64,000 nucleotides of DNA from Ignavibacteriota bacterium. GTDB lineage: Bacteria; Bacteroidota; Ignavibacteria; UBA10030; CAVZMI01. The stretch lies in the NCBI GenBank assembly GCA_963776275.1, contig CAVZMI010000017.1, forward strand, positions 1-64,000. Direction: 5' to 3'. Both the position numbers and the translations under genes were made by a program. This document shows positions 4,455 to 64,000 of this stretch, piece after piece. The notes beneath the pieces are model-generated. The model ran no database searches. It saw only the letters and a list, made by a program, of their open reading frames with translations, and was not told the DNA's origin. Each line of letters opens with the position of its first letter. The stretch's first letter is position 1.

Positions 4455-5513
4455 ATGGATATAGAGAAATTACGTAGGGAAATTAACAAGATAGATGATG
4501 AGATTCTAAAACTGTTAAACAAAAGAGCTATAACAGCTATAGAAATCGGGAAAACTAAGAAGAAAATAGGAATTTTGCCATATCGGCCTGCCAGAGAAAG
4601 GGACATCATTAATTCACTACTAAAGAAAAATAAGGGCCCATTGAATCCGGAAGATATTAAGAACATATATCGGGAAATTATGTCTGTTTCGGTAAACTTA
4701 CAAAAAAAACTGGCTATTGCTTATCTCGGTCCGGAAGCCACCTATACACACGAAGCAGCCACCAAGAAATTTGGTGCATCTGCTGAATATAAACCCTTAT
4801 CAAACATAAAAGAAATTTTTTCCGCAGTAGAAAAAGGAATTGCTGATTTTGGGGTCGTACCTGTAGAAAATTCCACTGAAGGAGTAGAAACACACACTCT
4901 GGATATGTTCATAGAGTCGGACTTGAAGATATGCGACGAGATTCTCTTACCTATTTCACATTGTCTTCTTTCCAAGTCAAAAAAGAAAAAAATAAATAAA
5001 GTATATTCTCATCCGCAGGCATTGGCTCAATGTAGAATATGGCTACAAAAAAATCTGCCGGGAGTACCACTGGCAGAAGTATATTCTACAGCCCAGGCAG
5101 CCAAATTAGCCTTAAAAGAAAAATTCTCAGCAGCAATTGCCTCGGAACTTGCATCTCGACTATACAATTTACCCATTGTAGGAAAAAACATTGAAGACCT
5201 TTCAGTGAACGTGACCAGATTTTTAGTAATAGGCAAAGAATCCAGTCAACCGACAGGAAACGACAAGGTTTCTCTGATGTTTTCCCTGAAAGATAAAGTC
5301 GGTGCCCTTCATTCCAGTTTAAAACCTTTCTACAAACATAAAATAAACTTAACTAAGATTGAATCCCGTCCCTCTAAAAGGAAAATCTGGGAATATTATT
5401 TCTTTGTAGACTTAGAAGGTCACTGCGAGGAGAAAAGAGTAAAACAAGCAATTGAAGAATTAAAGCCTCTGTGTACATTCTTGAAAGTACTCGGCTCTTA
5501 TCCTAAGGGATAA
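4455..5513 (+). CDS. pheA: Chorismate mutase/prephenate dehydratase (P-protein)
   Basis: CM domain LRREINKID..., YLGPEATY, PVENSTEG, SHPQALAQC, TRFLVIG, ACT NLTKIESRP. Confidence 0.97.
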   Translation: MDIEKLRREINKIDDEILKLLNKRAITAIEIGKTKKKIGILPYRPARERDIINSLLKKNKGPLNPEDIKNIYREIMSVSVNLQKKLAIAYLGPEATYTHEAATKKFGASAEYKPLSNIKEIFSAVEKGIADFGVVPVENSTEGVETHTLDMFIESDLKICDEILLPISHCLLSKSKKKKINKVYSHPQALAQCRIWLQKNLPGVPLAEVYSTAQAAKLALKEKFSAAIASELASRLYNLPIVGKNIEDLSVNVTRFLVIGKESSQPTGNDKVSLMFSLKDKVGALHSSLKPFYKHKINLTKIESRPSKRKIWEYYFFVDLEGHCEEKRVKQAIEELKPLCTFLKVLGSYPKG

Positions 5514-6984: not shown

Positions 6985-7072
6985 ATTCTAACAAAAGAGT
7001 TGTTGGAGAGTAAGCCAACATAAAATCTTTTGGTTCTCGTTAGGAGAGCGCGAGATATTGTTGGCTTTTTTT
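6985..7072 (+). promoter_or_regulatory. Leader with mutually exclusive terminator/antiterminator hairpins
   Basis: CCAACA (7015-20) can pair with TGTTGG at 7001-06 or at 7059-64; the latter is followed by a T-run. Confidence 0.55.
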
Positions 7073-7105
7073 GTTCGCTATCATCCGTGGGAAGAAGGAA
7101 TAATC

Positions 7106-8945
7106 ATGAAATCAAAAAGTTACTTGGAAATATTACAATCTAAATTAGACAAACACAACTATACTAAACTATGCGCTATAGCCAACTCTAAAGTTCACCA
7201 GTTTATCGTTGAATCTGCAGAGTTGTGTAATCCGCAGAAGATATTTATCTGTAGTGATTCTACTGAAGATATTGCATATATACGCGAGCAAGCGATCTCA
7301 ACCGGAGAAGAAAAACCATTAGCAATTTCAGGACATACTTGTCATTTTGACGGTATAGATGACCAAGGTCGGGACAGAGAGGTCACCAAATATCTCGTAC
7401 CCAAGAACGCATCCTTAAGTAAAGCCCTTAACCAAATTAAGAGGGAGAAAGGTTTGGCAGAGGTGAAGAACTTACTCAAAAATGCTATGCAGAATCGTAC
7501 GATGATTGTCCGTTTACTTTCGCTAGGACCGACTAACTCCATATTCAGCATTTTGTGTCTGCAGTGTACGGATTCTTGGTATGTAGCTCATAGCGAAGAC
7601 CTTCTTTATCGTCCGGCTTATGAGATGTTTCGGAAAGAAAAAACACAGACTGGCTTTCTTTAGTATCTTACATTCAGCAGGAAAGATGAATGAAGAGATG
7701 GTGAGTATAGAAACTGAAAAAAAACGTATCTATATTGACTATACCCAAGACACTATTTATAGCGTCAATACTCAATATGCCGGTAATACGATTGGTTTAA
7801 AGAAACTCGCACTTCGTCTTACTATCCGCAAAGCAGATAAAGAGGGATGGCTTGCAGAGCATATGTTGCTAATGGGGGTACATGGCTCGAATGGACGCAA
7901 AACTTACTTAGCAGGTGCCTTCCCCAGCGCTTGCGGCAAAACCTCTACCGCAATGCTTCCCGGCGAGACAATCTTGGGTGATGATATTGCTTACTTACGT
8001 AATATTAATGGCAAAATCCGAGCAGTGAATGCTGAAGCCGGTATTTTTGGTATTATCCAAAATGTCAACCCTACTAATGACCCTGTTATATATAAAGTGC
8101 TTACTACGCCGGGTGAGGTTATCTTCTCCAACACACTAGTAAAAGACAGCAAACCCTATTGGCTGGGGATGGGTTGCGAACTTCCTAAAGAGGGAGTAAA
8201 TTTCTCGGGGACATGGCATAAAGGCAAGACTGATAGCGAAAACAATAAAATCCCTCCTGCTCACAAAAATGCCCGTTACACTGTTGCTCTAAAGGCACTG
8301 GAGAATGTTGACTGCGAACTGGATAACACTCAGGGTGTGGAATTGGCTGGCATAATGTATGGCGGAAGAGATGCCAAAAGTTATGTGCCGGTGCAGCAGA
8401 GTTTTAATTGGCAACACGGTATTATAGCTTACGGAGCATCACTTGAGACTGAAACAACTTTTGCTGTTATCGGTAAAGAAGGCATACCGGAAATAAACTT
8501 GATGAGTATTCAAGATTTTGTTTCCATTCCTTTGGGTAAGTATATTCTCAACAACTTAGAATTTGGCAAGAAACTTAAAAAACCACCTTTTATTTTCGGC
8601 GTCAACTATTTCCTTCGGGATAAAGAAGGTAAATTCTTAAACGGTGCGCGGGACAAACATGTATGGGTAAAGTGGATGGAGTTACGTATACATAATGATG
8701 TTGATGCAATAAAATGTCCTACCGGCTGGATTCCCAAATATGAGGACCTGCATATGCTTTTTAATCAGGTTCTGGGCAAGGATTATACAAAAGAGGATTA
8801 CATCAAGCAATTCACTGTTCGCGTTCCTGAGAACTTAGCTAAACTTGAGCGGGTGGAGAAATTCCACCGCCAAAACGTCGCTGATGCACCACAGATACTC
8901 TTTGAAGTACTCACCCAGCAACGTGAACGCTTGCTTAAAGCTTAA
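7106..8945 (+). CDS. pckG: Phosphoenolpyruvate carboxykinase (GTP), one indel near 7640
   Basis: QYAGNTIGLKKLALR, WLAEHM, AFPSACGKT, GDDIAY, HKNARYT, VNYFLRD. Confidence 0.96.
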
Positions 8946-9928: not shown

Positions 9929-11113
9929 ATGTCTATATCAAAACGAGTAAGTTTAATTAGCCCCTCACCAACATTAGCAATAACAGCAAAAGCAAAAAAG
10001 ATGCAAGCTGAAGGCATTAATGTAATTGGTTTTGGTGCAGGTGAACCGGATTTTGATACACCTGTTAATATCAAAGAAGCCGCCAAGAAAGCAATTGACA
10101 AAGGATTTACCAAATATACTCCTACTTCCGGCATAAAAGAATTAAAAGATGCTATCTGCAAGAAATTTAAAAACGACAATAATCTTGACTATTCACCGGA
10201 GGAAATTCTTGTTTCTTGCGGGGCAAAACATTCTATTTTTAATGTTATCCTTGCACTGTGCAATGAAGGACGATGAAGTTATTGTACCTTCTCCCTATTG
10301 GGTAAGTTATCCGGAAATGGTTAAAGTAGCCGGTGCAAAATCTGTATTTCGTAAAAACGACACAGGACTCTGATTTTAAAATTAGCCCACAGCAATTACA
10401 AAAAGCAATTACATCAAAAACAAAACTTTTAATTTTGAATTCTCCTTCCAATCCCACAGGTATGGTTTATACAAAAGAGGAACTGCTAAGTTTAAGTGAA
10501 ATCTTAATAGAGAAAAACGTTTTTTGTATATCTGATGAAATATACGAAAAAATTATCTATGACGGTGTAAAACATATAAGTATTGCCTCTTTAGGAGTCT
10601 GAAATAAAAAAACAGACAATTGTCATAAATGGTGTCTCTAAATCTTATTCTATGACCGGCTGGCGAATAGGATATGCTGCAGGACCAAAAGAAATCATTC
10701 AGGCAATGTCAAATTTGCAAGACCATTCAACTTCCAACCCAACATCCATTTCTCAACTTGCCAGTGTAGAAGCATTACAAGGACAGCAAGAAGACTTAAA
10801 GCGAATGGTTGAAGAATTTAAAAAGAGACGTGATTATATAGTGGAAAGGATAAATTCTATAAAAGGTCTTTCTACAATTAAACCCCAAGGTGCATTTTAT
10901 TGTTTTGTGAATATATCTGAAATTCTTGGAGGGAAAATCAGCAATTCAATGGAATTAACAGATTTACTTTTAACTGAAGCCAAAGTAGCTGTCGTCCCAG
11001 GTTGCGTTTTCGGAGACGATAACTTTATACGATTATCTTATGCAACTTCTATGGAAAATATTGTAGAAGGATTAAATAGGATAGAAAAGTTCATAAACAA
11101 AATAAAGAGTTGA
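9929..11113 (+). CDS. aspC: Class I/II PLP aminotransferase (aspartate aminotransferase), frameshifted
   Basis: [40 protein letters not shown]. Confidence 0.95.
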
Positions 11114-12999: not shown

Positions 13000-13044
13000 A
13001 ATCGGTTTTCGGTTATAGGTTATCGTATTTAGCAACACCGATTA
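13000..13044. terminator. Hairpin between convergent genes
   Basis: AATCGGT...ACCGATT inverted repeat overlapping the FadL-like stop. Confidence 0.4.
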
Positions 13045-14309
13045 GAAAGTATACGTTGTGGACAATTCAAACATGTGCGAATATCCCCAGTAATCGCCAT
13101 TGGTAGGAAATGCGTTTTCACTATCTTCTGCTTCTCTTCTTATACCTTGAGAATATGAATATGCAACATCTACATTCACTTTCCATATCGGGAAACTGGC
13201 ACCCACAAAAAATCTGTTGCTTGAAACGTCAAACATCATAGGGTCTAAGGTTTCTGCAGGAACAGGAGAAGGGTCCCACATGTAACCGCCTCTTAAGGTA
13301 AATTGGGGATTTACTTCGTATTCTGCCCCAAGTCTTAATATATATCTGTCTTTCCAATCGCGGGAGATTTCTACTTCGTCTGTAGATAACAATTGCATGT
13401 GGCGGATTAAAAAGATGTTATGGGATTATCTAATTTTTGAGTAAGCGTATCAATTCTTGACCAATTTACCCAATCAATCTCCCGACTGACAAGCCATCTA
13501 TCAAAACCTGAATAGCTAACTCCTAAAGATACTGTTTGCGGGAAGGTAAAATTCATCGAAAAATCTTCATCAAATTTGGGATAATCTATTGGAGTTTGAG
13601 GGTCAATATCAACATCTCCTTCGAATTTAACTTTTGTTTCGCTTCTCCAGGTACCGCCTACTGTCCAATTATCCGAAGGTGACCACAGAAAACCGATATT
13701 GCCGGAAGTTCCTCTTCCCTCTCCCCAAGTTTTGACATACGCTTCACTGGGAATAGGCGGAATTGCACCATGTAGGAATAACAACAGCATAAGATTTAGT
13801 ATTCATTTTTGCAAAGCCTTCTGCTAACCCTGCTCCTACCAACAAGTTATCTCCTAATCTACAGGACATTCCTCCCTGAAGATTACCCAGGGAGATTTCC
13901 GAGCGCGTTGAGTTATATCTCAAAAAAGAATCATCTTCCCATCTTTGACTCAAACCAAAAGGTACATAGTATCCTAATCCTGCACTGAAAGAATCGTTGA
14001 AATTGTGTGTCAAAAAGAGATTAGGTATCATCTGGATAGTCGTTATGCTGCTTTCCTTACCATCTGCTTCGGCATCATAATACGAATGAGGGTCAACGAA
14101 AGCCGTGCCTTTCATAAGCATAGTTCCTTCACACATACCTAATCCGGCAGGATTCCAGTAAAGAGCTGAAGGGTCATCAGCAACAGCTACAAATGCACCA
14201 CCCATTCCAGTGGCTCTTGCCCCAATTGAAGGTGCCTGAATACTGGCTGAATAGACAGTTGAAACTAATAAAACGAAAAAAATAATTAAGAAGAGATTCT
14301 TTATTTCAT
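13042..14309 (-). CDS. Outer-membrane FadL/TodX-family transporter, frameshifted
   Basis: GARATGMGGAFVAVADDPSALYWNPAG, FPQTVSLG, W.D....RLGAEY, LRGGY; C-terminal TYTF. Confidence 0.9.
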
Positions 14310-15385: not shown

Positions 15386-17634
15386 TCATTTTATCCCGAG
15401 CTTCTCCATTTTATAGGCGAGCATTCTTCTACTTATATTCAACAATTTAGCTGCTTTCATTCTAACTCCACCTGATTTTTCCAAAGCTTCAATAATTAAT
15501 TTTCTCTCTATCTTAGCCACTTCTTCCTCCAGAGAAAGATGTTCTTCCTTGAAAGAAGGAGTGGTAGTTTCTTCTACATGAGTATAAGAAGGAGCTGATA
15601 TGAGGTTCAGGCATTGGGACTGAGACCTCGTCTCTTTCTGTTATCACCGGAAGGAATATTTCAACAGTTGTCCCTTTCTTGGGTATTGAAGATATATTAC
15701 TCTTACCACCATGCTTTTCTATAATCTGTTTTACAATAGGTAATCCAAGACCTAATCCTTGAGTTTCGGTTGTAAAAAATGGCGAATACAGTTTAGACAT
15801 ATTTTCATACTCTATACCTTTGCCGTTGTCTTTAAAGATTATTCTAACTTCTTTTATTCTCGAGGTCATACGAAGTCTCAATGTCTAACTTGCCACCATC
15901 ATTCATAGCAGAGAGACTATTCTTAATAAGATTTGAAAAAACTTCTTTCAGTTTATCACCGTCAATGAGACTCTTGGGAATAGAACTGGCGATATTCTTT
16001 TTGACTTGGATATTTTGCTTTTTAAACTCTTCTTGGAATTCTTCAATCACTTCTTCCAATATTGAATTGATATTCTCCGTAGAAAGAGTTAATTTGGAAG
16101 CATCTGAAAGTTTTTCCAGTCGGTTAACAATATAGTTCAACTTATTAACACTATCTAAAACCGTTTCATGATAATCTTTCACAAAACCTTTCTCTCCTTT
16201 CTTCTCTGGTAGAAGCTGTGCAAACGTACTAATAGAAACAAGTGGATTTCTTATTCCGTGGGCTATTCTTCCTGCAAGTTCTCTCCAGAATTCTTCTTCT
16301 TTTGCTTTATCCAGTTCTTCTTCCAACTTTTTGACCCCTGATATATTCTGGAAAATCATCAATGCTCCTTTTACTTTATTTAATTCATCCCTCAAAGGAA
16401 CAGTGCTTATCCCCAAAGAAATATTCTTTCCAGGATATACTATTTCATGCCGATTATAAATTCGTCTCATCGTGAAGGGTTCTCAGCATAATATCAGCAA
16501 TTATTGAGCCTGTTTTTTGTATATCTTCACCTATTATCATCTACTTCTATTCCCAAAATATCCTTTGCGGATTTATTTATTGAGGTTATTTTCCCTTCCT
16601 TATCTATAGTTAATACTCCGGAAGAAATATTCCGCATTATATCAGAAAGGTGTTCTCTGTGTTGAATAATCTCTTTATATAGACAAGAATTCTGGATAGC
16701 TAATGCGGTATAGTTACTCATCATATATAGAAATCTTAATTCACTGGGAGTAAAATCCTCACCAGTAATTTTTTTGCCCAGACTCAAGAAACCTAAAAGG
16801 TCACCATCAGAGAATAATGGAATACATATCTCTGATTCCAAAAGTTCCATTTCTTCCTTAATAGAAGATGGAATATTTTTGTTTTGTCTTGTCAATATCT
16901 GCCCATTTTTGTGAAAGCCATCCTGCAATACCATCTCCTTCCTTAATTTTGAATTCTTCCACAATCTCTCTTTTTATTCTCAAAGCATTTTTAATCCTAT
17001 AAGAGAAATTATTTTTATCTTTAATGAGAATCGCTAACTTCCCTACTTCAAAAACTTCTCCCAATGTAGTTACAATCATTTCAAAGAGTTCTTCGGGTTC
17101 AAATATGTGAGTTAGAATACGGGAGAATTTTCTAAAAGTCTCCTGATAGTAATAGAATAATTGTTTTAACTCTTCTTCCGGTAAGAAATCTCTATTTCCT
17201 GTAACAGGTTCTTTTGTTGTTAAATCTAATTCTCTTTTCTCGTCTTCCAGAGTTTTAATTTTTCTCATAAGTTGAAGTCTTTCTTCAGCTCTCAATATAA
17301 GATGCCCCAGTTCTTTTCTTTTGAATGGTTTGATTGTCCATTCATAAACCTTGTTTTCTATAAGTTCTTCTTTTATCTTGTCCTCAGATGTGCAAAGAAG
17401 AACTATAGGAATAATTTCTGAGTTCAATCTCTCTTATATCTTTGATAAATTCAAGCACATGTAACATCTGGGAGCGGAGTATCTATAATTGCAATGTCAA
17501 TCTGTTTTTCTTTTATTGTTCTCAAAGCTTCTGTCAGGACTTGAAGCAGAAAAAATCAAAAATTTGTCGTCAAGTATTGCCTTTAAAGATTCTTTTATCT
17601 GTTTTTGTTCAGTAACAATTAATAGATTCTTCAT
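15386..17634 (-). CDS. Multidomain sensor histidine kinase (degenerate REC-GAF-PAS-HisKA-HATPase) followed by a Fis-type HTH, multiple indels
   Basis: IAHGIRNPL H-box, NLIKNS N-box, DNGKG, GLGLGL; GAF LLGFLSLGKK.TGEDF; PAS SGVLTID..GKIT..N; HTH IIEALEKSGGVRMKAAKLLNISRRMLAYKM. Confidence 0.85.
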
Positions 17635-27888: not shown

Positions 27889-30089
27889 ATGGATGTCTCG
27901 AAAAATGGAAAATACAAGAAGAAACTCGAAGAGCTCCTTTCAATCTGTAAGAAGAACCTTCGTTCAGTTGATACAACGCTAATCGAGCGGGCGTATTATT
28001 TTAGCCTGGAGGCTCACAAGCACGACATCCGTGCATCTGGTGAGCCATTTTTTGATCATCCGTACGAAGTGGCAATGATTATTGCCAAGGAAATTCCGCT
28101 CGACGATTTCTCTGTCGCCAGCGCACTTCTCCACGACGTTGCCGAAGATACTGATTTCACAATCGAGGATATCAAGGCGGAATTCGGTCCGGTTGTTGCC
28201 GATATCGTCGACGGTGCGACCAAGATCACCGATATATTCAAAAGCCACGAAATTACACAGGCCGAAAATTACCGCAAGCTGCTACTCTCGATGGTGAATG
28301 ATATCCGCGTCATGCTGGTGAAATTCGCCGATCGCTTGCATAATATGCGGACTCTCGAATATCTTCCGGTAGAAAAACAGCAGCGCCTCGCAAAAGAAAC
28401 GTTCGAAATCTATGTCCCCTTCGCACACCGTTTCGGTCTCGGAAAAATCAAGTGGGAACTCGAAGATCTCTCCTTTAAATACAGCGATCGCAAGGAGTAT
28501 GATGAAATCTCACGTCTGTTGAGCGCCAAACGGAGAGAGAGGGAGCATTACATTAAGAAATTCGTAAAACCTATTGGGGAACGCCTCGAAGCAGAGGGAA
28601 TGCAGTTTGAAATCGGAGGCCGGCCGAAACACCTCTACAGCATTTACTCTAAAATGCAGCAGCGAAACAAACCGCTGGATGAGATTTATGATCTTTTCGC
28701 CGTGCGGGTCATCCTCGACACGGATAACAACAACGACTGCTTCGCTGTGTACGGCATCGTTTCGGAAATTTACATCCCGATTCCGGAACGTTTCAAAAAC
28801 TATATTTCCATTCCAAAAAAGAATGGGTATCAATCGATCCACACCACTGTGATCGGACCTGAAGGGAAGATGGTCGAAGTTCAAATCCGGACTCGCGCAA
28901 TGCATGAAGTTGCGGAGAAGGGGGTTGCAGCGCACTGGCGGTACAAAGAAAATGTCGCAGGGTTGGACAAAGAATTGGAATATTGGGTCGACTGGGTACG
29001 GGAACTTTTTGACCATAAGCTTGACGAAGATTCGCCTAAAGAGCTGATGGAAAGTTTTAAACTCAATTTGTACCAGGATGAGATTTATGTTTTCACACCG
29101 AAAGGTGAACTTAAAATCCTCCCCAAAGGCTCGACTCCGATTGATTTTGCGTTTGAGATTCATTCACAGGTCGGTAATCACACTATCGGCGCGAAAGTGA
29201 ATGGCCGCATTATCCCGCTGAATTCCATGTTAAAAAGCGGCGATCAGGTGGAAATAATCACTTCAAAGAATCAAACACCGAATGCCGACTGGGAACAATT
29301 TGCCATCACCCATAAAGCCAAAACTCATATACGGCGATGGATCAAGGAAGAGCAGAGAAAACCTCACTCGAGGGACGGGAGATTTGGGAAAAGAAACTCA
29401 AAAAAATACGACTGCATGTCAATGAAGACGATCTCACAAATTTCGTTCATGAGGCAAAATTTGACAATCTGACGGATTTTTATATTCGGGTCGCAAAAGG
29501 CGAAGCAAATATCGATGCGTTTGCCGATGAAATAGAGCTAAAACTTCATCATCCCCAGCCTGTCGAATCTGAAAAGGACGTTGTCGAAAAAACCTCGATC
29601 TTTAAACAGTTCGTTAAAACCGCGCGCAGTTCACTCGGTGGAATCCTTGTTACCGGTTCGGAAGACGTGTTTCTCCATAACTTCGCCAAGTGCTGTAACC
29701 CCGTTCCGGGAGATGAGATCATAGGTTTTGTAACTACCGGCGAAGGAATAAAGATTCATCGAAAGACCTGCCATAATGTTCAGCGATTCTATGCGGCGCA
29801 TGAAGATAGAATCATCGAGGTGAGTTGGCCGGTCACCGACGGCGAGGTGTTCATCGGCGGTATTAGTTTCTCCGGTGACGATCGACCCGGTATGCTCGAA
29901 GAGATCACCCATGCGATCTCGACTTACAATAACACAAATATCAGAAGCGTCAACATCGACTCAAAAGGAACATTGTTCGATGGATGGATTCTTCTGTACG
30001 TGAAGAATCTCGACCATCTTAACCAAATCATCAGCAGGGTGAAAAAACTCCCCGGCATTCAAGCTGTCGAGCGGTTTGAAAAAATGTAG
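27889..30089 (+). CDS. spoT: Bifunctional (p)ppGpp synthetase/hydrolase, indel near 29360
   Basis: LLHDVAED, DRLHNMRTL, GRPKHLYSI, NGYQSIHT, EVQIRT, TGS, KCCNPVPGD, ACT. Confidence 0.97.
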
Positions 30090-44293: not shown

Positions 44294-45482
44294 TTATACG
44301 CTACCAGATAAGGATGGACATTTTGGCGTTTTCGGCGGGATGTTCATTCCAGAAACATTAATACCAGCCGCAAAAGAACTTCAAGAATGGTATGATAAAC
44401 TGAAAGATGATAAGGAGTTCCAGCAGGAATTTAAACTTCTACTGAGGCATTATGCTGGAAGACCGACACCATTGTACAAAGCACAACGTCTGACGGAGTT
44501 CGCAGGCGGGGCTACCATATATCTGAAAAGAGAAGACCTCTGTCATACGGGTGCCCACAAAATCAATAACACAATAGGTCAGGTCCTAATTGCTCGTCGG
44601 ATGGGTAAAAAGCGGATTATAGCAGAAACAGGAGCAGGACAGCATGGAGTTGCAACAGCGACCGTCTGTGCTCTTTTTGGACTCCAATGCATTGTGTATA
44701 TGGGAGAGGAAGACATGGAGCGCCAGGCTCCAAATGTGTACCGTATGAAACTCCTTGGCGCAGAAGTCCGAACAGTGAGTTCCGGAAGCCGCACACTCAA
44801 AGACGCAACAAGCGAAGCAATTCGTGATTGGGTAACGAATGTTCGGGATACATTTTACATCATTGGATCGGTCGTCGGTATGCACCCATATCCCATGATG
44901 GTGCGGGATTTTCAGTCTATCATCGGAAAAGAGACACTCGATCAATTCAAAGAATATGAAAATCGGCTTCCGGATATTTTAATCGCATGTGTTGGCGGCG
45001 GCAGCAATGCTATGGGGATGTTTTATCCATTTCTGCAGCATGTTCCCCCTGTCAGAATGATCGGAGTCGAAGCGGCTGGTGAAGGATTGACTTCGGGAAA
45101 ACATGCAGCGTCCCTTGTCCTCGGGAAAAAAGGGGTTTTACACGGAGCGATGCAATATCTCTTACAGGATGAAGAAGGTCAGGTTCAAATAGCACATTCA
45201 ATTTCAGCCGGACTTGACTATCCGGGAGTTGGTCCCGAACATTGTTATTTTAAGGATGCCGGCATCGCAGAATACGTTGCGATCACGGACAACGAGGCGC
45301 TCGATGCTTTTCATCTCCTTGCAAGAACAGAGGGAATCATCCCGGCACTCGAGTCTGCCCATGCCATCGCTTATGCTATACAACTAGCAAAAACGCTTCC
45401 TTGCCAGAAATCGATTGTCGTGAATCTCTCCGGCCGGGGCGATAAAGATCTTAACACAGTAATGAAATACTCAGCTCGATGA
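44268..45482 (+). CDS. trpB: Tryptophan synthase beta subunit
   Basis: [47 protein letters not shown]. Confidence 0.99.
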
Positions 45483-48208
45483 ATCGCGTGGAAATTTCTG
45501 GAGAAAAACAACAGCCGGATGGTCGTTCAAGGTTCTTTGCTGCAGGGAGTGTGATTTTTTTTATTGCTCTCGGGCAGATAATGAATATCATCCAGGAAAT
45601 GCTCATTGCTGCGTATTTTGGTACTACGTGGATTACTGACGCCTACAAGTTGTCGATGGCAATTCCGACGCTCTTCTCGACTGAATCGATCGCGATAATC
45701 AACGCCGTTGTCATTCCTATTCTTTATACCGGGAAAACATTTGAAGAACAACGGAAAATTTTTTCTGCACTTCTTATTTTTTTTATTGTCGTAAGCGTTT
45801 CCCTCTGGCTCGTACTACTTCTTTTCGCTTCGCCTCTTATTGCTCTTGTTGCGCGCGGTTTTTCGCAGGAAGGACGGCTGATTGCCGTTTCACTTCTCAC
45901 CGTGACGTCGTCTATAGTGGTTCTTACGATTCTTTCAACATTTGCGGGAAATGTTCTGAACAGCCGCAACGAATTTGGAGTGCCGGCGCTTCAAAAAGGA
46001 TTCATGTTTGCAATGATCATTCCAGCATTGTATTTTGGAGCCTCGAGATTCGGAATAGGATCGGCCGCCTGGGGGGCAGTTATTGGAATGGGCGTATTTA
46101 CAATTATCATATTCTGGCGACTTCTCCGTCATCATTTTACTCCGGTCAGAGTTACCATCTGGAAAAATCCGGCTGTGACGCAGTGTATTCTGCTCGCTGC
46201 TCCGCTGATTATCTATTCTCTATTCAACCAGGTGAATGTTCTTTTCGAAAAAAAGATAGCGGCCGATTTTCCCACCGGAACACTTTCGGCTCTCGATTAT
46301 GCATTGAAGAGCTCGGCTTTTTTCATCAATTTTCTCGGTGTCGGGATAACGACGGTAATTTTTCCGACATTATCGAAAAAAAATGTAGAGGGAGATACTC
46401 AGTCGCTTCAGCGGTATGCTGAACGGTTATTTTCATTCATCATTCTTCTGGTTACTCCATTTATTCTCTTTCTTCTTATTTTCCGTACGGAATTTATTCA
46501 GGTCCTGTTTGAACGAGGCGCATTTACTCCGGACGCCACTGCGATGACATCCCGAATGCTCGGCTACTACGCCATCGGTCTTCTCGGTTATGCTGTGGTG
46601 ATGACGTTCCCGCGCTTTTTCCAGGCAACCCGGAATAATACAACCATCATGCGCATCGGTATTGCGATTGTCGGTGTGAACATACTCGGATTGATTGTAT
46701 TCCCATATATGTTCGGTTCGATAGGAATACCGATATCGTTCATCGTGACCTATATGCTTCATGCGTGCATACTTCTTTCCAGACTTCACGCCATCATCAA
46801 ATTCCGTTGGAGTACAATTGGTCTGCAGACATTGAAAATTGCAGTTCCGTGTCTTCTGTCTGCATTATTTCTTTTCGGAGCACATTCCCTAGTACCATTT
46901 TCATCGATTGCCTCATGGGGCGCCCGCTTTGGCATTTTAGCCGGTATATGTCTGTTGTTTGGAACGCTGCATCTTGTGATTGCAGCAGGGATGAAAGTTG
47001 TTGTCGCAGAAGAAATTGTCCGGCGCGGTCTTATTACGATACGACGATCTGGGAAAAGAAAACAGATGAACATTGTGGTTATTTCACACAGCAGTGTTGT
47101 GGGATTGTATCAGCAAAAGCTCGCACTGATGCATCAGCGGTATGACGACGAAATATCTCTCATTACTCCACCGTCATGGAATGAAGGAGGACATGAGGTG
47201 ATCGCCGAGGTTCATCATTATCCGGAACTCAATGTCACACCGCTCCCGGTTCATTGGCCCGGCAGACTCAACCGCCATTACTACTCATGGAGAGCATTAA
47301 GGAACTACCTTCGCCGGCGGCATCCCGATCTTATATACATAGAGGAAGAACCGCGAAGTCTGTGCGCTTATCAGACTTATCTCTTCTGCCGTTCCAACAA
47401 TATTCCGTATGTCTTTTATACATGGGAAAATATCGAGCGAAAATATCGCTTAATTCATGAGATTATTTTCCGGCATGTACGCCGTTCGGCGGCGGCAGCA
47501 GTCGTGGGGAGCTGGGATGCAGCCGAGATACTTCGCCGTCGATCCTTTACGAAACCTATGCTTATACAGCCTCAATATGGAGTGGATCCGGACATTTTCT
47601 ATCGCCGCGAGACTTCACGTTTCAAGGAAGGGTGGCGGGTTTCAGGTCCAGTGATCGGCTATGCCGGACGTCTTGTACCTGAAAAAAGAGTAGACCTTTT
47701 TCTCCATGCGTTCGAAAAGCTGTCGTTCCGCGCTACATGTGTCATTGCTGGAGACGGTCCGGAATTCAATCCTCTGAAAGAATTAGCGGCACGGCTCCAG
47801 CGCACACAGGATATCTATTTTATCGGTTCGGTTCCATACGATCAAATGCCAGAATTTCTATCGGCACTTGATATTCTCGTTCTTCCTTCGCAGACGACAT
47901 CGATATGGAAAGAACAATTTGGCAGAGTACTCATCGAGGCGATGGCATGCGGGGTCTGCGCCGTCGGATCGGATTCGGGGGCAATCCCGGCGGTAATCGG
48001 AAACGCCGGATGGATATTCCAAGAAAATGATGCTCACGCATTAACGAAAATTCTTAACGATCTCGTTGTTGATGGAGAAGAGCGGAAACGAATGGCGGAC
48101 GAAGGCAGGGCACGAGTTCTCGAACATTTCTCAAACGCAATTCTCGCGCACCGCTTACACGAATTTTTCGTGCAGGTTGTATCGCAACCTCAGTCTCCGA
48201 ATGTATGA
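45479..48208 (+). CDS. MurJ/MviN-like flippase (aa 1-529) in frame with a GT4 glycosyltransferase (from ATG 47066)
   Basis: AAYFGT...DAY, FPTLS, LFERGAF; then [28 protein letters not shown]. Confidence 0.85.
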
Positions 48209-61553: not shown

Positions 61554-62987
61554 ATGTACGGCGAATGGAAGTTCTTCGTCAATGGCGGATGGCGGACGTC
61601 ATCACACCGTCGTCCTGCGATCAATCCCTACACTCGAAAAACTATCGGTACTGTTGCACAGGCATCGGGGAGCGATATCCTTGATGCGATTGCTGCAGCA
61701 CATGCAGCGTTCGGTGTAATGAAAAAGCTCCAGGCGTATGAAAGAAGTGCAATACTGCTCGGAATCGCAGACACCCTGAAACGCCGCAAAGAGGAACTCG
61801 CACGATTAATGACGGATGAATCGGGAAAGCCGATTCAATTCTCTCGTGCAGAAATTGATCGCTCGATCTTTACCTTCTTGACGGCCTCCGAAGAAGCAAA
61901 ACGGATTTCTGGCGAGGCATTACCGCTCGATCTTGCTCATCACTCCAGACAACGGCTCGGCATACTCCGACGCTTTCCGATTGGTGTAATAGGTGCGATT
62001 ACACCATTCAATTTTCCAATAAATCTTGTCGCACATAAGGTTGCACCCTGTATCGCCGCAGGCAATACAATGATATTGAAGCCTGCATCGAGTACAGCAG
62101 CGATCGCTTCGACATTCACAGAAATTATTGCGGAAACATCGCTCCCAACAGGTGCGTTCAACCTTGTCACATGTACCGGCGCCGAAGCGGAGATTCTTGC
62201 AACCGATCCGCGCATTGCAATGCTGACCTTTACCGGAAGTCCTGAAGTCGGATGGCGATTGAAAGAAAAGGCCTGGAAGAAAAAAGTGACGCTCGAGCTT
62301 GGAGGAAACGCCGGCATCATTATCGATGAAGGAATTGCTATCGATCCGATCATCCAGCGCATCGCACAGGGATCATATGGAAATGCGGGACAATCATGTA
62401 TTGCCATCCAGAGAATTTTTGTTCATAGGAGCCTTTTTGACGAATTTCGCGAGAAGTTTATTGCGACAACGCGTACAATTGTCGTCGGCGATCCCACCGA
62501 TGAATCGACAGTCGTAGGTCCGATGATTAATGAAGCAGCTGCGGTCAAGACTGAAGAATGGATCAACGAAGCTGTAAAACTGGGGGCGAAAGTCCTTGTC
62601 GGAGGAACAAGACAAGGCGCCGTGTTTGCACCGACTGTTCTCACAGAAACTACAACTATGATGAACGTTGAGTACCGCGAAGTATTCGCACCTGTTGTCA
62701 CGCTGACTCCGGTAGAGTCGTTCGATGAAGCACTCCTGCGTGTGAATGATTCAAAGTACGGCCTCCAGGCCGGTGTTTTTACAAATAATCTTCAGCACGC
62801 GTTTACTGCGTACGAGACACTGGCCGTCGGTGGCGTGATAATCAACGACTATCCGACCTACCGTATAGATCATATGCCGTATGGTGGAGTAAAAGAATCA
62901 GGGATGGGACGGGAAGGTCTTCGTTACGCTATCGAAGAAATGACCGAACTTAAATTGATGGTTCTTAATTTTTCTAAATTGTTTTGA
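61554..62987 (+). CDS. Aldehyde dehydrogenase family protein
   Basis: PFNFP, FTGS, LELGGN, GQSC, EVFAP, PYGGVKESG. Confidence 0.97.
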   Translation: MYGEWKFFVNGGWRTSSHRRPAINPYTRKTIGTVAQASGSDILDAIAAAHAAFGVMKKLQAYERSAILLGIADTLKRRKEELARLMTDESGKPIQFSRAEIDRSIFTFLTASEEAKRISGEALPLDLAHHSRQRLGILRRFPIGVIGAITPFNFPINLVAHKVAPCIAAGNTMILKPASSTAAIASTFTEIIAETSLPTGAFNLVTCTGAEAEILATDPRIAMLTFTGSPEVGWRLKEKAWKKKVTLELGGNAGIIIDEGIAIDPIIQRIAQGSYGNAGQSCIAIQRIFVHRSLFDEFREKFIATTRTIVVGDPTDESTVVGPMINEAAAVKTEEWINEAVKLGAKVLVGGTRQGAVFAPTVLTETTTMMNVEYREVFAPVVTLTPVESFDEALLRVNDSKYGLQAGVFTNNLQHAFTAYETLAVGGVIINDYPTYRIDHMPYGGVKESGMGREGLRYAIEEMTELKLMVLNFSKLF

Positions 62988-63103
62988 TTAATTTAAAGAT
63001 CCGACGTTTTCCTACGAATGAGGTTTTTTTATCTTTAGAAAAGATTAGTTATTTAATATTCGGTTCCTCAACATTTAAGAAAGCCAAATGTTGAGTAGAG
63101 AGG

Positions 63104-63322
63104 GGTTACCTCGATACTCGTCCTGAGCCCCTCGGTGAACTCGGGGCTAGCTTGTCGAAGGACGCCCACCCCGTTTCACGGGGTAGGACTACACCTCGAC
63201 CGTTCGATAAACTCACGGCGAGCAAGCTCAGTGCGGCGCTCGGTAAACCGGCTGTACACCAAATTGTGAAACTGCCAGGGTGTCGAGTAGCCCTCGTTCT
63301 TTGAGGGCATATCGAGACAACC
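63104..63322. repeat. Cluster of nested REP-like palindromic units (core YTCG-N5-CTCR)
   Basis: Six related imperfect palindromes, four of them inserted inside others. Confidence 0.8.
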
Positions 63323-63414
63323 ATACAGTGTCTGAAGTAACTCCAAGAATCAAAGTATAATATTCTATGAGTCCTTCAGCATATACAAATTGGGTTTGAG
63401 GCGAAAGGATTATC

Positions 63415-64000
63415 TTGTCAGACTTCATTCATCTTCACAATCATACACACTACAGTCTTCTGGATGGTGCATGCACTGTCGAGGACCTTGTTAATGCTGC
63501 AGTAGAACAGAAGATGCCTGCGGTAGCACTAACCGACCATGGTGTATTATTCGGTGCAATTGAATTTTACCAGAAGGCAAAAAAAGCAAATATAAAGCCG
63601 ATCATTGGCAGTGAAATCTATATCGTTACAAAAGGATCTCGTTTCGACAAAGTCACTCCTGCAGAAGCACGTACGAGTGGTGGGAAAAGAGGAATTTACC
63701 ACCACCTTGTCCTCCTGGCAAAAAATCAAACGGGCTATAAAAATCTTGTCAAGCTTTCAACAATCGGCCATATCGAGGGTTTTTATTATAAACCCAGAAT
63801 TGATCTTGACACTCTCCGGCAATATTCCGAAGGGCTCATCGGACTTTCAGCATGTTCGGGCGGAGTGGTTGCGGCGCATCTCGTGGATGGACGATATGAT
63901 CTGGCAAGGGAAGCGGCTATTCTCTATAAAGAAATTCTCGGCGAAGATTTCTATCTTGAGATTCAGGATCACGATCTTGAGAGAGAAAAAAATATCCTTG
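63415..64000 (+). CDS. dnaE: DNA polymerase III alpha subunit, 3'-truncated
   Basis: TTG start; SDFIHLHNHTHYSLLDGA, ALTDHG, KPIIG.E, HLVLLAKN..GY.NL, FYYKPRID. Confidence 0.98.
   Translation, partial: MSDFIHLHNHTHYSLLDGACTVEDLVNAAVEQKMPAVALTDHGVLFGAIEFYQKAKKANIKPIIGSEIYIVTKGSRFDKVTPAEARTSGGKRGIYHHLVLLAKNQTGYKNLVKLSTIGHIEGFYYKPRIDLDTLRQYSEGLIGLSACSGGVVAAHLVDGRYDLAREAAILYKEILGEDFYLEIQDHDLEREKNIL

Follow-up and report, generated by a model that had tools for sequence, protein, structure and literature searches.

A nest of tiny hairpin repeats upstream of dnaE in an Ignavibacteriota genome, and its relatives in other bacteria

Introduction

The spacer which precedes dnaE in an Ignavibacteriota genome contains a block of short palindromes, some of which lie inside others. 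What is this structure, and how can it arise? An earlier note, made from the sequence alone, described the block as a stack of palindromic units of 23-24 nt, each inserted between the TCG and the CTC of its host, and interpreted it as a fixed-length micro-element which uses its own motif as target. We have rebuilt the block by script, searched other genomes for relatives of its units, and looked for a gene which might be responsible for their movement. In what follows, the window is the whole stretch of DNA that was analysed, 64,000 nucleotides of contig CAVZMI010000017.1, and coordinates refer to it unless a locus in another genome is named.

Results

Genomic setting

The block occupies positions 63104-63322, ahead of the dnaE start. 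The window takes in nearly all of a 64,130-nt contig, and the ProRS which it encodes shares 87-89% identity with proteins labelled 'Bacteroidota bacterium' and 69-74% with those of Ignavibacteria and Kryptonia, so the source is an uncultured member of this group. Its upstream neighbour is an aldehyde dehydrogenase gene (61554..62987, plus strand; PF00171, E 1e-145), its downstream neighbour is the start of the gene for the DNA polymerase III alpha subunit (dnaE, PHP domain; 63415..64000, plus strand; PF02811, E 1e-57), which exits the window. The block forms a G+C island, with 57-62% against 24-36% in the surrounding spacer. It is spanned by an ORF of 72 amino acids, for which we have found no Pfam family and no homolog. 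A perfect 10-bp inverted repeat (63067-63095; arms CTCAACATTT and AAATGTTGAG, with 9 nt between them) abuts the block, 80 nt past the dehydrogenase stop. It may be the terminator of this gene, though it is not followed by a T run.

Several genes in the window appear split into overlapping or adjacent ORFs (7058-8945, 13042-14205, 15513-17427 and 27889-30089): PEPCK (two pieces), a FadL-type porin (three), a histidine kinase (several) and RelA/SpoT (two). Such splits point to assembly frameshifts or to pseudogenes, and differences of a single nucleotide in unit length (23 vs 24 nt) may therefore be assembly errors. The window also contains a 909 amino acid ORF (45479-48208) which combines MurJ lipid II flippase and group 1 glycosyltransferase domains, an unusual fusion if real.

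Four units in two nests

The block is a genuine nest of tiny repeats. Two units are intact, both of them 23 nt long: unit C (63128..63150, plus strand), CCCCTCGGTGAACTCGGGGCTAG, with loop GTGAA and tail CTAG, and unit F (63200..63222, plus strand), CCGTTCGATAAACTCACGGCGAG, with loop ATAAA and tail CGAG. They have the same layout: the first three stem bases are followed by YTCG, five further bases and CTCR, then by the complementary three and by a tail of 4 nt. Each of them splits another unit. C is found in the loop of unit B (63117..63163, minus strand), in the opposite orientation. A 23-nt excision restores B, TCGTCCTGAGCTTGTCGAAGGAC, with 23 nt, and on the minus strand this emptied unit reads TCC-TTCG-ACAAG-CTCA-GGA-CGAG, the canonical core of the family described below. 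The boundaries of B can be set at 63117-63162 or 63118-63163. F is found in unit D (63192..63238, plus strand), in the same orientation, at CTCGA^CAAG, and its excision, also of 23 nt, restores D, CACCTCGACAAGCTCAGTGCGGCG, as 24 nt with the structure CAC-CTCG-ACAAG-CTCA-GTG-CGGCG. The loops of the inserts thus differ from those of the hosts, which are ACAAG in both B and D, and the tails in the window are CTAG, CGAG, CGAG and CGGCG. C enters B at a bond different from that used by F in D. AGC is present on either side of C, which leaves a 3-nt uncertainty in where C begins and ends; around F the microhomology is one nucleotide (C).

The scripted rebuild has confirmed the coordinates of C, F, B and D given in the earlier note, their lengths (23, 23, 23 and 24 nt) and the AGC at both ends of C. 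The motif said to be shared by all four, stem-YTCG-N5-CTCR-stem', is present in full in B, C and F, which have three base pairs and a Y-R pair around TCG-N5-CTC. In D the three base pairs are present, and the Y-R position holds C.A. As hairpins the units are weak: their nearest-neighbour energies, from -1.4 to -2.6 kcal/mol, are no better than those of shuffled sequences.

The strict motif (3-bp complementary stem, YTCG, N5, CTCR) has two intact matches in the 64,000 nt, both strands included, and both are in the block. The mean of 200 Markov simulations is 0.17. Both matches are nested (2/2), while none of the 45 cores which arose in 300 simulated windows is (0/45). If up to two mismatches are allowed, 14 matches are found against 8.5 expected, convincing only within the block, which is the sole cluster of units in the 64 kb. 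Comparison of the block with plasmids by blastn gave seven weak matches (E 0.7-8), none of them real.

Outer unit and additional hairpins

The two nests lie between the ends of an outer unit, A. Its two ends match each other and are true relatives of unit G, described below; the left end is GGTTACCTCGATAC (GGTTAC-CTCG-ATAC; 63104..63117, plus strand), and the right end, CTCGGTAAACC (CTCG-GTAAACC; 63239..63249, plus strand), needs one bulge to pair with it. The sequence GGTTNNCTCGATAY is present in the window only at A (63104-63117) and, inverted, at 63309-63322. The ends of the outer unit proposed in the earlier note do match, but it does not close cleanly: when B, D and hairpin E are removed, 10 nt are left in its loop, not 5.

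Hairpin E (63165..63187) is a fifth insert, absent from the earlier list and of a different type from the other units. It has 23 nt, CCCACCCCGTTTCACGGGGTAGG, with nine predicted stem pairs and a TTC loop (-7.9 kcal/mol, z -3.7). We have found no further copies of it in the window or in 124 loci from the matches listed in the genome scan described below.

Unit G (63279..63322, minus strand) is an inverted relative of A. It had been described as uninterrupted; in fact, it is split by a 19-nt hairpin, H (63290..63308), GCCCTCGTTCTTTGAGGGC (GCCCTC-GTTCTTT-GAGGGC), which is found in its loop and has no further copies in the window. A 20-nt excision at H restores TGT-CTCG-ATATA-CTCG-ACA, and the whole emptied unit reads GGT-TGT-CTCG-ATATA-CTCG-ACA-CC. 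The loop pentamer of G, and perhaps of A, is ATATA. Within the block, YTCGA^C serves as the site for F in D alone; the positions of C in B, of H in G, and of B, E and D in A are different.

A family of repeats in other genomes

A genome scan with the 17-nt core of emptied B as query has detected at least 125 stretches. According to the record titles of the matches listed, they correspond to at least about 18 phyla, with cultured isolates included, for example of Thalassotalea, Sphingomonas and Novosphingobium. The groups named in these titles, among the matches listed, are Bacteroidota, Ignavibacteria, Cyanobacteria, Chloroflexota, Alpha-, Beta- and Gammaproteobacteria, Actinomycetota, Nitrospirota, Acidobacteriota, Planctomycetota, Verrucomicrobiota, Myxococcota, NC10, Armatimonadota, Binatia, Zixibacteria, Eremiobacterota, Deferribacteres and several Patescibacteria.

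Cores were counted in 123 loci around the listed matches (1,249,737 nt), since one locus (L039) was dropped because of its overlap with L038. The number of intact cores in these loci is 254, while a Markov control gives 4; 124 of the 254 are seed-free. The common form of the loop is TCGACARGCTC: 169 cores have the pentamer ACAAG and 51 have ACAGG, together 220 of the 254, a count which is biased by the seed. The consensus of the 218 distinct units is R-NCC-TTCGACARGCTCA-GGN-YGAMCGG, with the CC/GG positions biased by the seed, and conservation stops 7 nt past the stem. For an unbiased check of the stem we have taken 148 loop matches regardless of their flanks. Pairs 1 to 4 are Watson-Crick in 131, 124, 116 and 119 of them, and CG, GC, TA and AT pairs are all present; pair 5 is Watson-Crick in 71 of the 148, and pair 7 in 37, which is the chance level. 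The stem thus covaries over four pairs, in agreement with the earlier claim that stems differ and yet stay complementary. Among seed matches the fourth pair, which is free, is Watson-Crick in 130 of 145 cases, so most of these matches are family members and not chance. Some matches in high-G+C Actinomycetota, for example L073, resemble coding repeats and may be unrelated.

The tails depend on the lineage: CAAG is found in L038, ACCA or CACCG in Binatia, TGAC in Bacteroidota and CGAACGG, the tail of 55 of the 218 distinct units, in many Proteobacteria. Most units (71 of 86) are located outside long ORFs. Their orientation with respect to the flanking genes is not biased (21 vs 18), and they are equally distributed between convergent and divergent spacers (12 vs 12). 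We have found no conserved left flank in lone units, so a strict sequence target does not hold.

Some loci present other arrangements. Inverted doublets or two-tier hairpins are frequent in proteobacterial loci (L005, L035, L053, L071 and others, near position 10000), with an outer stem around the unit, CCGTTCG...CGAACGG or CCGYTCA...CGAACGG, and often with an extra hairpin between the units. In Microbacterium mangrovi (L004, 7889-12200) units and spacers form long tandem arrays with periods of 54 and 71 nt, overlain by long ORFs without a Pfam family. Two lone units (L016 near 10000; L068 near 4485-4501, plus strand) adjoin what seem to be ends of tRNA genes, T-arm-like by the look of the sequence.

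In summary, the family is a widespread dispersed repeat, apparently uncatalogued. Neither the motif as text nor the peptides encoded by it are present in the literature searched; figure logos and supplements could still hold the motif.

Nesting in other genomes

Together with the two cores in the window, 256 intact cores are available, and 10 of them are strictly nested. Eight of these are found outside the window (8/254), in four genomes: three in L038, three in a single Binatia chromosome (L075 and L079), one in Parcubacteria (L084) and one in Acidobacteriota (L094). The nesting described for the window is therefore a recurrent feature. If one stem mismatch is allowed, 15 of the 256 are nested. 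As a control we have made 23-nt excisions every 7 nt across the loci, which placed a core over the junction in 10 of 177,193 trials.

The length excised is 23 nt in seven of the ten strict nests and 24, 25 and 26 nt in one each (five of 23 nt plus the same three lengths in the eight nests outside the window). The fixed length proposed in the earlier note is thus the modal one, with exceptions. Eight of the ten inserts have the orientation of their host, and six of these (five of the eight nests outside the window) enter at offset 8 of the host, YTCGA^C, which is the bond used by F in D. In this sense the units do use their own motif as a preferred site, but 246 of the 256 intact units are not inside another unit. 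In eight nests, host and insert have different stems, each of them self-complementary, for example CCC in CCT, CCC in TGG and CCG in CAC. A loop-specific search has also detected a 24-nt insert which ends in CGGCG, as D does (L033).

In L079 seven left halves (NNN-TTCGA, with a period of 8 nt) are followed by right halves with a period of about 15 nt; read by eye, the stems of most layers pair in nested order, with a few orphans. Strict recursive peeling fails past one layer because of orphan halves in the deeper layers, so deep stacks have been read by eye. Deep nests or large numbers of units are found in complete chromosomes such as OZ241332.1, OY970254.1, OY730416.1 and CP050901.1.

Units are also found inside heptamer arrays, (GACGAGT)n, (CTCCAAT)n and (GGTGTCG)n, in Chloroflexota and a cyanobacterium (L024, L023, L002). 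In L024 (about 430-560) a 24-nt unit interrupts (GACGAGT)n exactly in phase, and a 24-nt excision restores the phase. A relaxed periodicity screen of the loci found L024 alone.

Two other approaches have been rejected. A general test for split motifs (any N5 loop, inserts of 1-80 nt) gave no peak at 23 nt, only peaks at multiples of three; it was swamped by codon periodicity, so the loop-specific and excision tests were used instead. Histograms of the distances between YTCGA or GCTCR motifs are confounded by codon periodicity too.

Search for an enzyme

None of the 62 ORFs in the window belongs to a nuclease or transposase family in Pfam, as the earlier note had stated when it found no cognate enzyme gene there. 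The same is true of the 51 ORFs beside 18 dense clusters in other genomes, and neither of these two sets contains a RAYT or Y1 gene. Clustering of 2,590 ORF pieces located up to 3 kb from a unit has also brought out no recurrent gene family: the best cluster covers six loci and corresponds to response regulators, and in Pfam the 12 representatives of recurrent neighbour clusters belong to common families only, with no nuclease or transposase among them. The enrichment in enzyme genes next to clusters which the earlier note suggested looking for is not found in these sets.

Discussion

A proposed mechanism

The observations described in the earlier note are partly confirmed, and its interpretation is partly supported. 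On balance, we lean somewhat towards the view that the units are a non-autonomous micro-element, inserted in trans into the exposed loops of its own kind. Insertion is well supported, the class of enzyme is a guess. The mobility of the units is suggested by their anatomy.

On this view, at least eight tiny hairpin repeats have piled up in the block, and most of them are members of a single, very widespread family. Each unit would have a stem of variable sequence, about 4 bp long, a fixed loop of 11 nt (TCG-N5-CTC) and a short 3' tail, about 23 nt in total. New units would enter as whole modules in the exposed loop of units already there, most commonly directly 3' of YTCGA and without target duplication. 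Insertion at the loop would split the host, which is exactly restored when the insert is removed. Since a loop is offered only by an intact hairpin, stacks would grow from the middle, and the innermost unit would be the youngest.

As they encode nothing themselves, the units would depend for cutting and joining on a protein encoded elsewhere. It would act on single-stranded DNA; our best guess, with low confidence, is a nuclease-ligase of the HUH/Y1 kind, single-strand specific and able to recognize hairpins. The loop is invariant while stem and tail vary with the lineage, which suggests that a shared factor recognizes the loop. We infer that the complementary strand, GAG-N5-CGA, could close by two sheared G.A pairs and a G:C pair round a pentaloop. 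An asymmetry among wobbles (22 C.A vs 7 G.T, p 0.008) hints that GAG...CGA is the folded strand, weakly, since 19 of the 22 C.A are at one stem position.

A more ambitious proposal, which we consider possible but rather doubtful, is that these are cross-phylum 23-nt modules with an invariant 11-nt loop, which move at a fixed length into their own loop at TCGA^C, so that the centre-grown stacks record the order of insertion. There is no recognisable transposase nearby, and units are present even in Patescibacteria, with their small genomes; the enzyme responsible might thus be of a new class, or a housekeeping one which acts on single-stranded DNA.

Alternative explanations

The explanation which competes best with insertion requires no dedicated enzyme. 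Replication slippage or template switching at hairpins might duplicate half units (8 nt on the left, 14-18 nt on the right), or filled units might be copied into empty ones by short-patch conversion. Several loci present what would be expected. In L015 (10000-10280) a single left half is followed by right halves only, ACAAGCTCAGGACG, up to six copies with a period of 14 nt, and in L096 (about 300-460) by at least seven copies of an 18-nt unit, also right halves only. L038 has four left halves and two right halves, and the paralogous copies of a larger repeat in this locus differ in steps of 8 nt. Such unequal numbers of halves are not predicted by insertion of whole units, and they count against it. 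The microhomology at the junctions in the window, AGC around C and C around F, is also consistent with slippage. In fact, slippage clearly acts on these tracts, as a contributor as well as a rival. The nests are another matter. Differences in stem, loop and orientation cannot be produced by duplicating neighbouring sequence, while insertion of a separate copy can produce them, and all three are found: the stems differ in eight of the ten strict nests, each stem remaining self-complementary, the inserts in the window have other loops than their hosts (GTGAA and ATAAA in place of ACAAG), and C is inverted relative to B. Because most inserts have a stem other than that of their host, the nests are not explained by slippage alone, which we regard as an unlikely account of the whole.

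The second alternative is a strict REP/REPIN system, in which a RAYT (TnpA-REP) Y1 nuclease, with its gene elsewhere in the genome, would spread the hairpins. REP sequences are usually described as species-specific, while here a single loop sequence is common to many phyla. In passages of three papers, REP/REPIN elements are described as short intergenic hairpins, often in inverted pairs, non-coding and thought to be spread in trans (PMC3116915, PMC3333891, PMC8266576). Our units resemble them in several respects: they too form short hairpins between genes, with stems that vary, inverted doublets are frequent among the proteobacterial loci, with outer stems CCGTTCG...CGAACGG, and A and G form an inverted pair. 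They differ in that no GTAG or CGTC tag adjoins them at a fixed position and no RAYT or Y1 gene is seen in the 62 window ORFs or the 51 ORFs near dense clusters. Their stem is also much shorter and their conserved loop much larger. For example, the superfamily of CGTC-tagged REPs defined by Di Nocera et al. (2013) has stems of 8-9 bp, loops of 4-5 nt and a CCA tail, according to passages of that paper (PMC3733652), while here the stem has about 4 bp, the loop 11 nt and the tails are different. Nesting in the loop of the element itself is not mentioned in the REP/REPIN passages we have cited. We thus retain the link with REP and RAYT made in the earlier note as an analogy only, and a system of this kind seems to us improbable.

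A third possibility is that the 220 nt correspond to a single structured RNA, either a dnaE leader, an sRNA or an element at the 3' end of the dehydrogenase mRNA. The region does fold better than shuffled sequences (z -2.5 and z -3.3 for the plus and the minus strand), but this signal stems from separate hairpins. The best match to Rfam 15 for positions 62900-63500 has an E value of 3.2, far below the gathering score, and in eight loci there are no matches at this score. Moreover, solitary units between unrelated flanks are present in many phyla, and the units show no bias with respect to transcription. The view of the earlier note, that these are dispersed repeat units rather than one RNA, is supported, and we give very little credit to the structured RNA. 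As for chance or an assembly artefact, several frameshifted genes on the contig indicate that its base-level quality is imperfect, but there are no nests in 300 simulated windows, the same architecture is found in independent assemblies and units of the family are present in isolate genomes, so this explanation is hardly credible.

Comparison with known systems

The closest published analogue of the units is the SDR repeats of Nostocaceae. SDR1-8 are reported to have been described by Elhai et al. (2008, Genome Res 18:1484) as units of 21-27 nt, nested in each other and present in heptamer arrays, and are reported to have been argued to be mobile. The likeness is one of size and arrangement: our units have 23-24 nt, are nested, and one of them interrupts a heptamer array in phase. 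SDR5, with 21 nt, is described in passages of three papers as precisely inserted inside the HIP1 octamer (PMC4390886, PMC5861425, PMC13756078). The SDRs have been reported in Nostocaceae only, in the passages of PMC5861425, while the present family is found in at least about 18 phyla by record titles.

Single-strand transposition also offers a parallel. IS200/IS605 elements recognize hairpins and insert 3' of a short specific sequence, without target duplication, and insertion 3' of YTCGA without duplication resembles this Y1/HUH type of transposition. The differences are that our units consist of one hairpin instead of two ends, have only 23 nt, present no TnpA that we have found, and follow a target rule in nested copies only. 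There is also a precedent for hairpins as targets: IS1397 is specifically inserted into palindromic units, according to a title cited in PMC3116915.

Short palindromic repeats in the organelles of Volvox carteri are regarded as selfish, with an unknown enzyme, in the passages of PMC2670323. They differ from our units in being found in eukaryotic organelles and in their size (11-79 nt, 50 nt on average), long stems and loops of 3-5 nt, and these passages give no fixed unit length or insertion site. Finally, the units are not MITEs, which have the terminal inverted repeats of an IS, a target-site duplication and 50-500 bp: they have 23 nt and no consistent duplication, only the microhomology of 3 nt at C and 1 nt at F.

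Significance

In practical terms, the units create spurious ORFs and GC-rich islands, which can mislead the annotation of spacers such as that before dnaE. An enzyme able to place a 23-nt module at a defined bond would be of interest as a tool. The presence of one loop across many phyla calls for a shared recognition factor or for repeated horizontal spread, and to our knowledge neither has been described. If the units are truly mobile, the defined site makes the mechanism directly testable with oligonucleotides. They would then be near the minimum size that mobile DNA can have, with an insertion site defined inside their own loop, and if movement of 23-nt units into their own loop is the correct reading, they would be the smallest mobile DNA known outside Nostocaceae.
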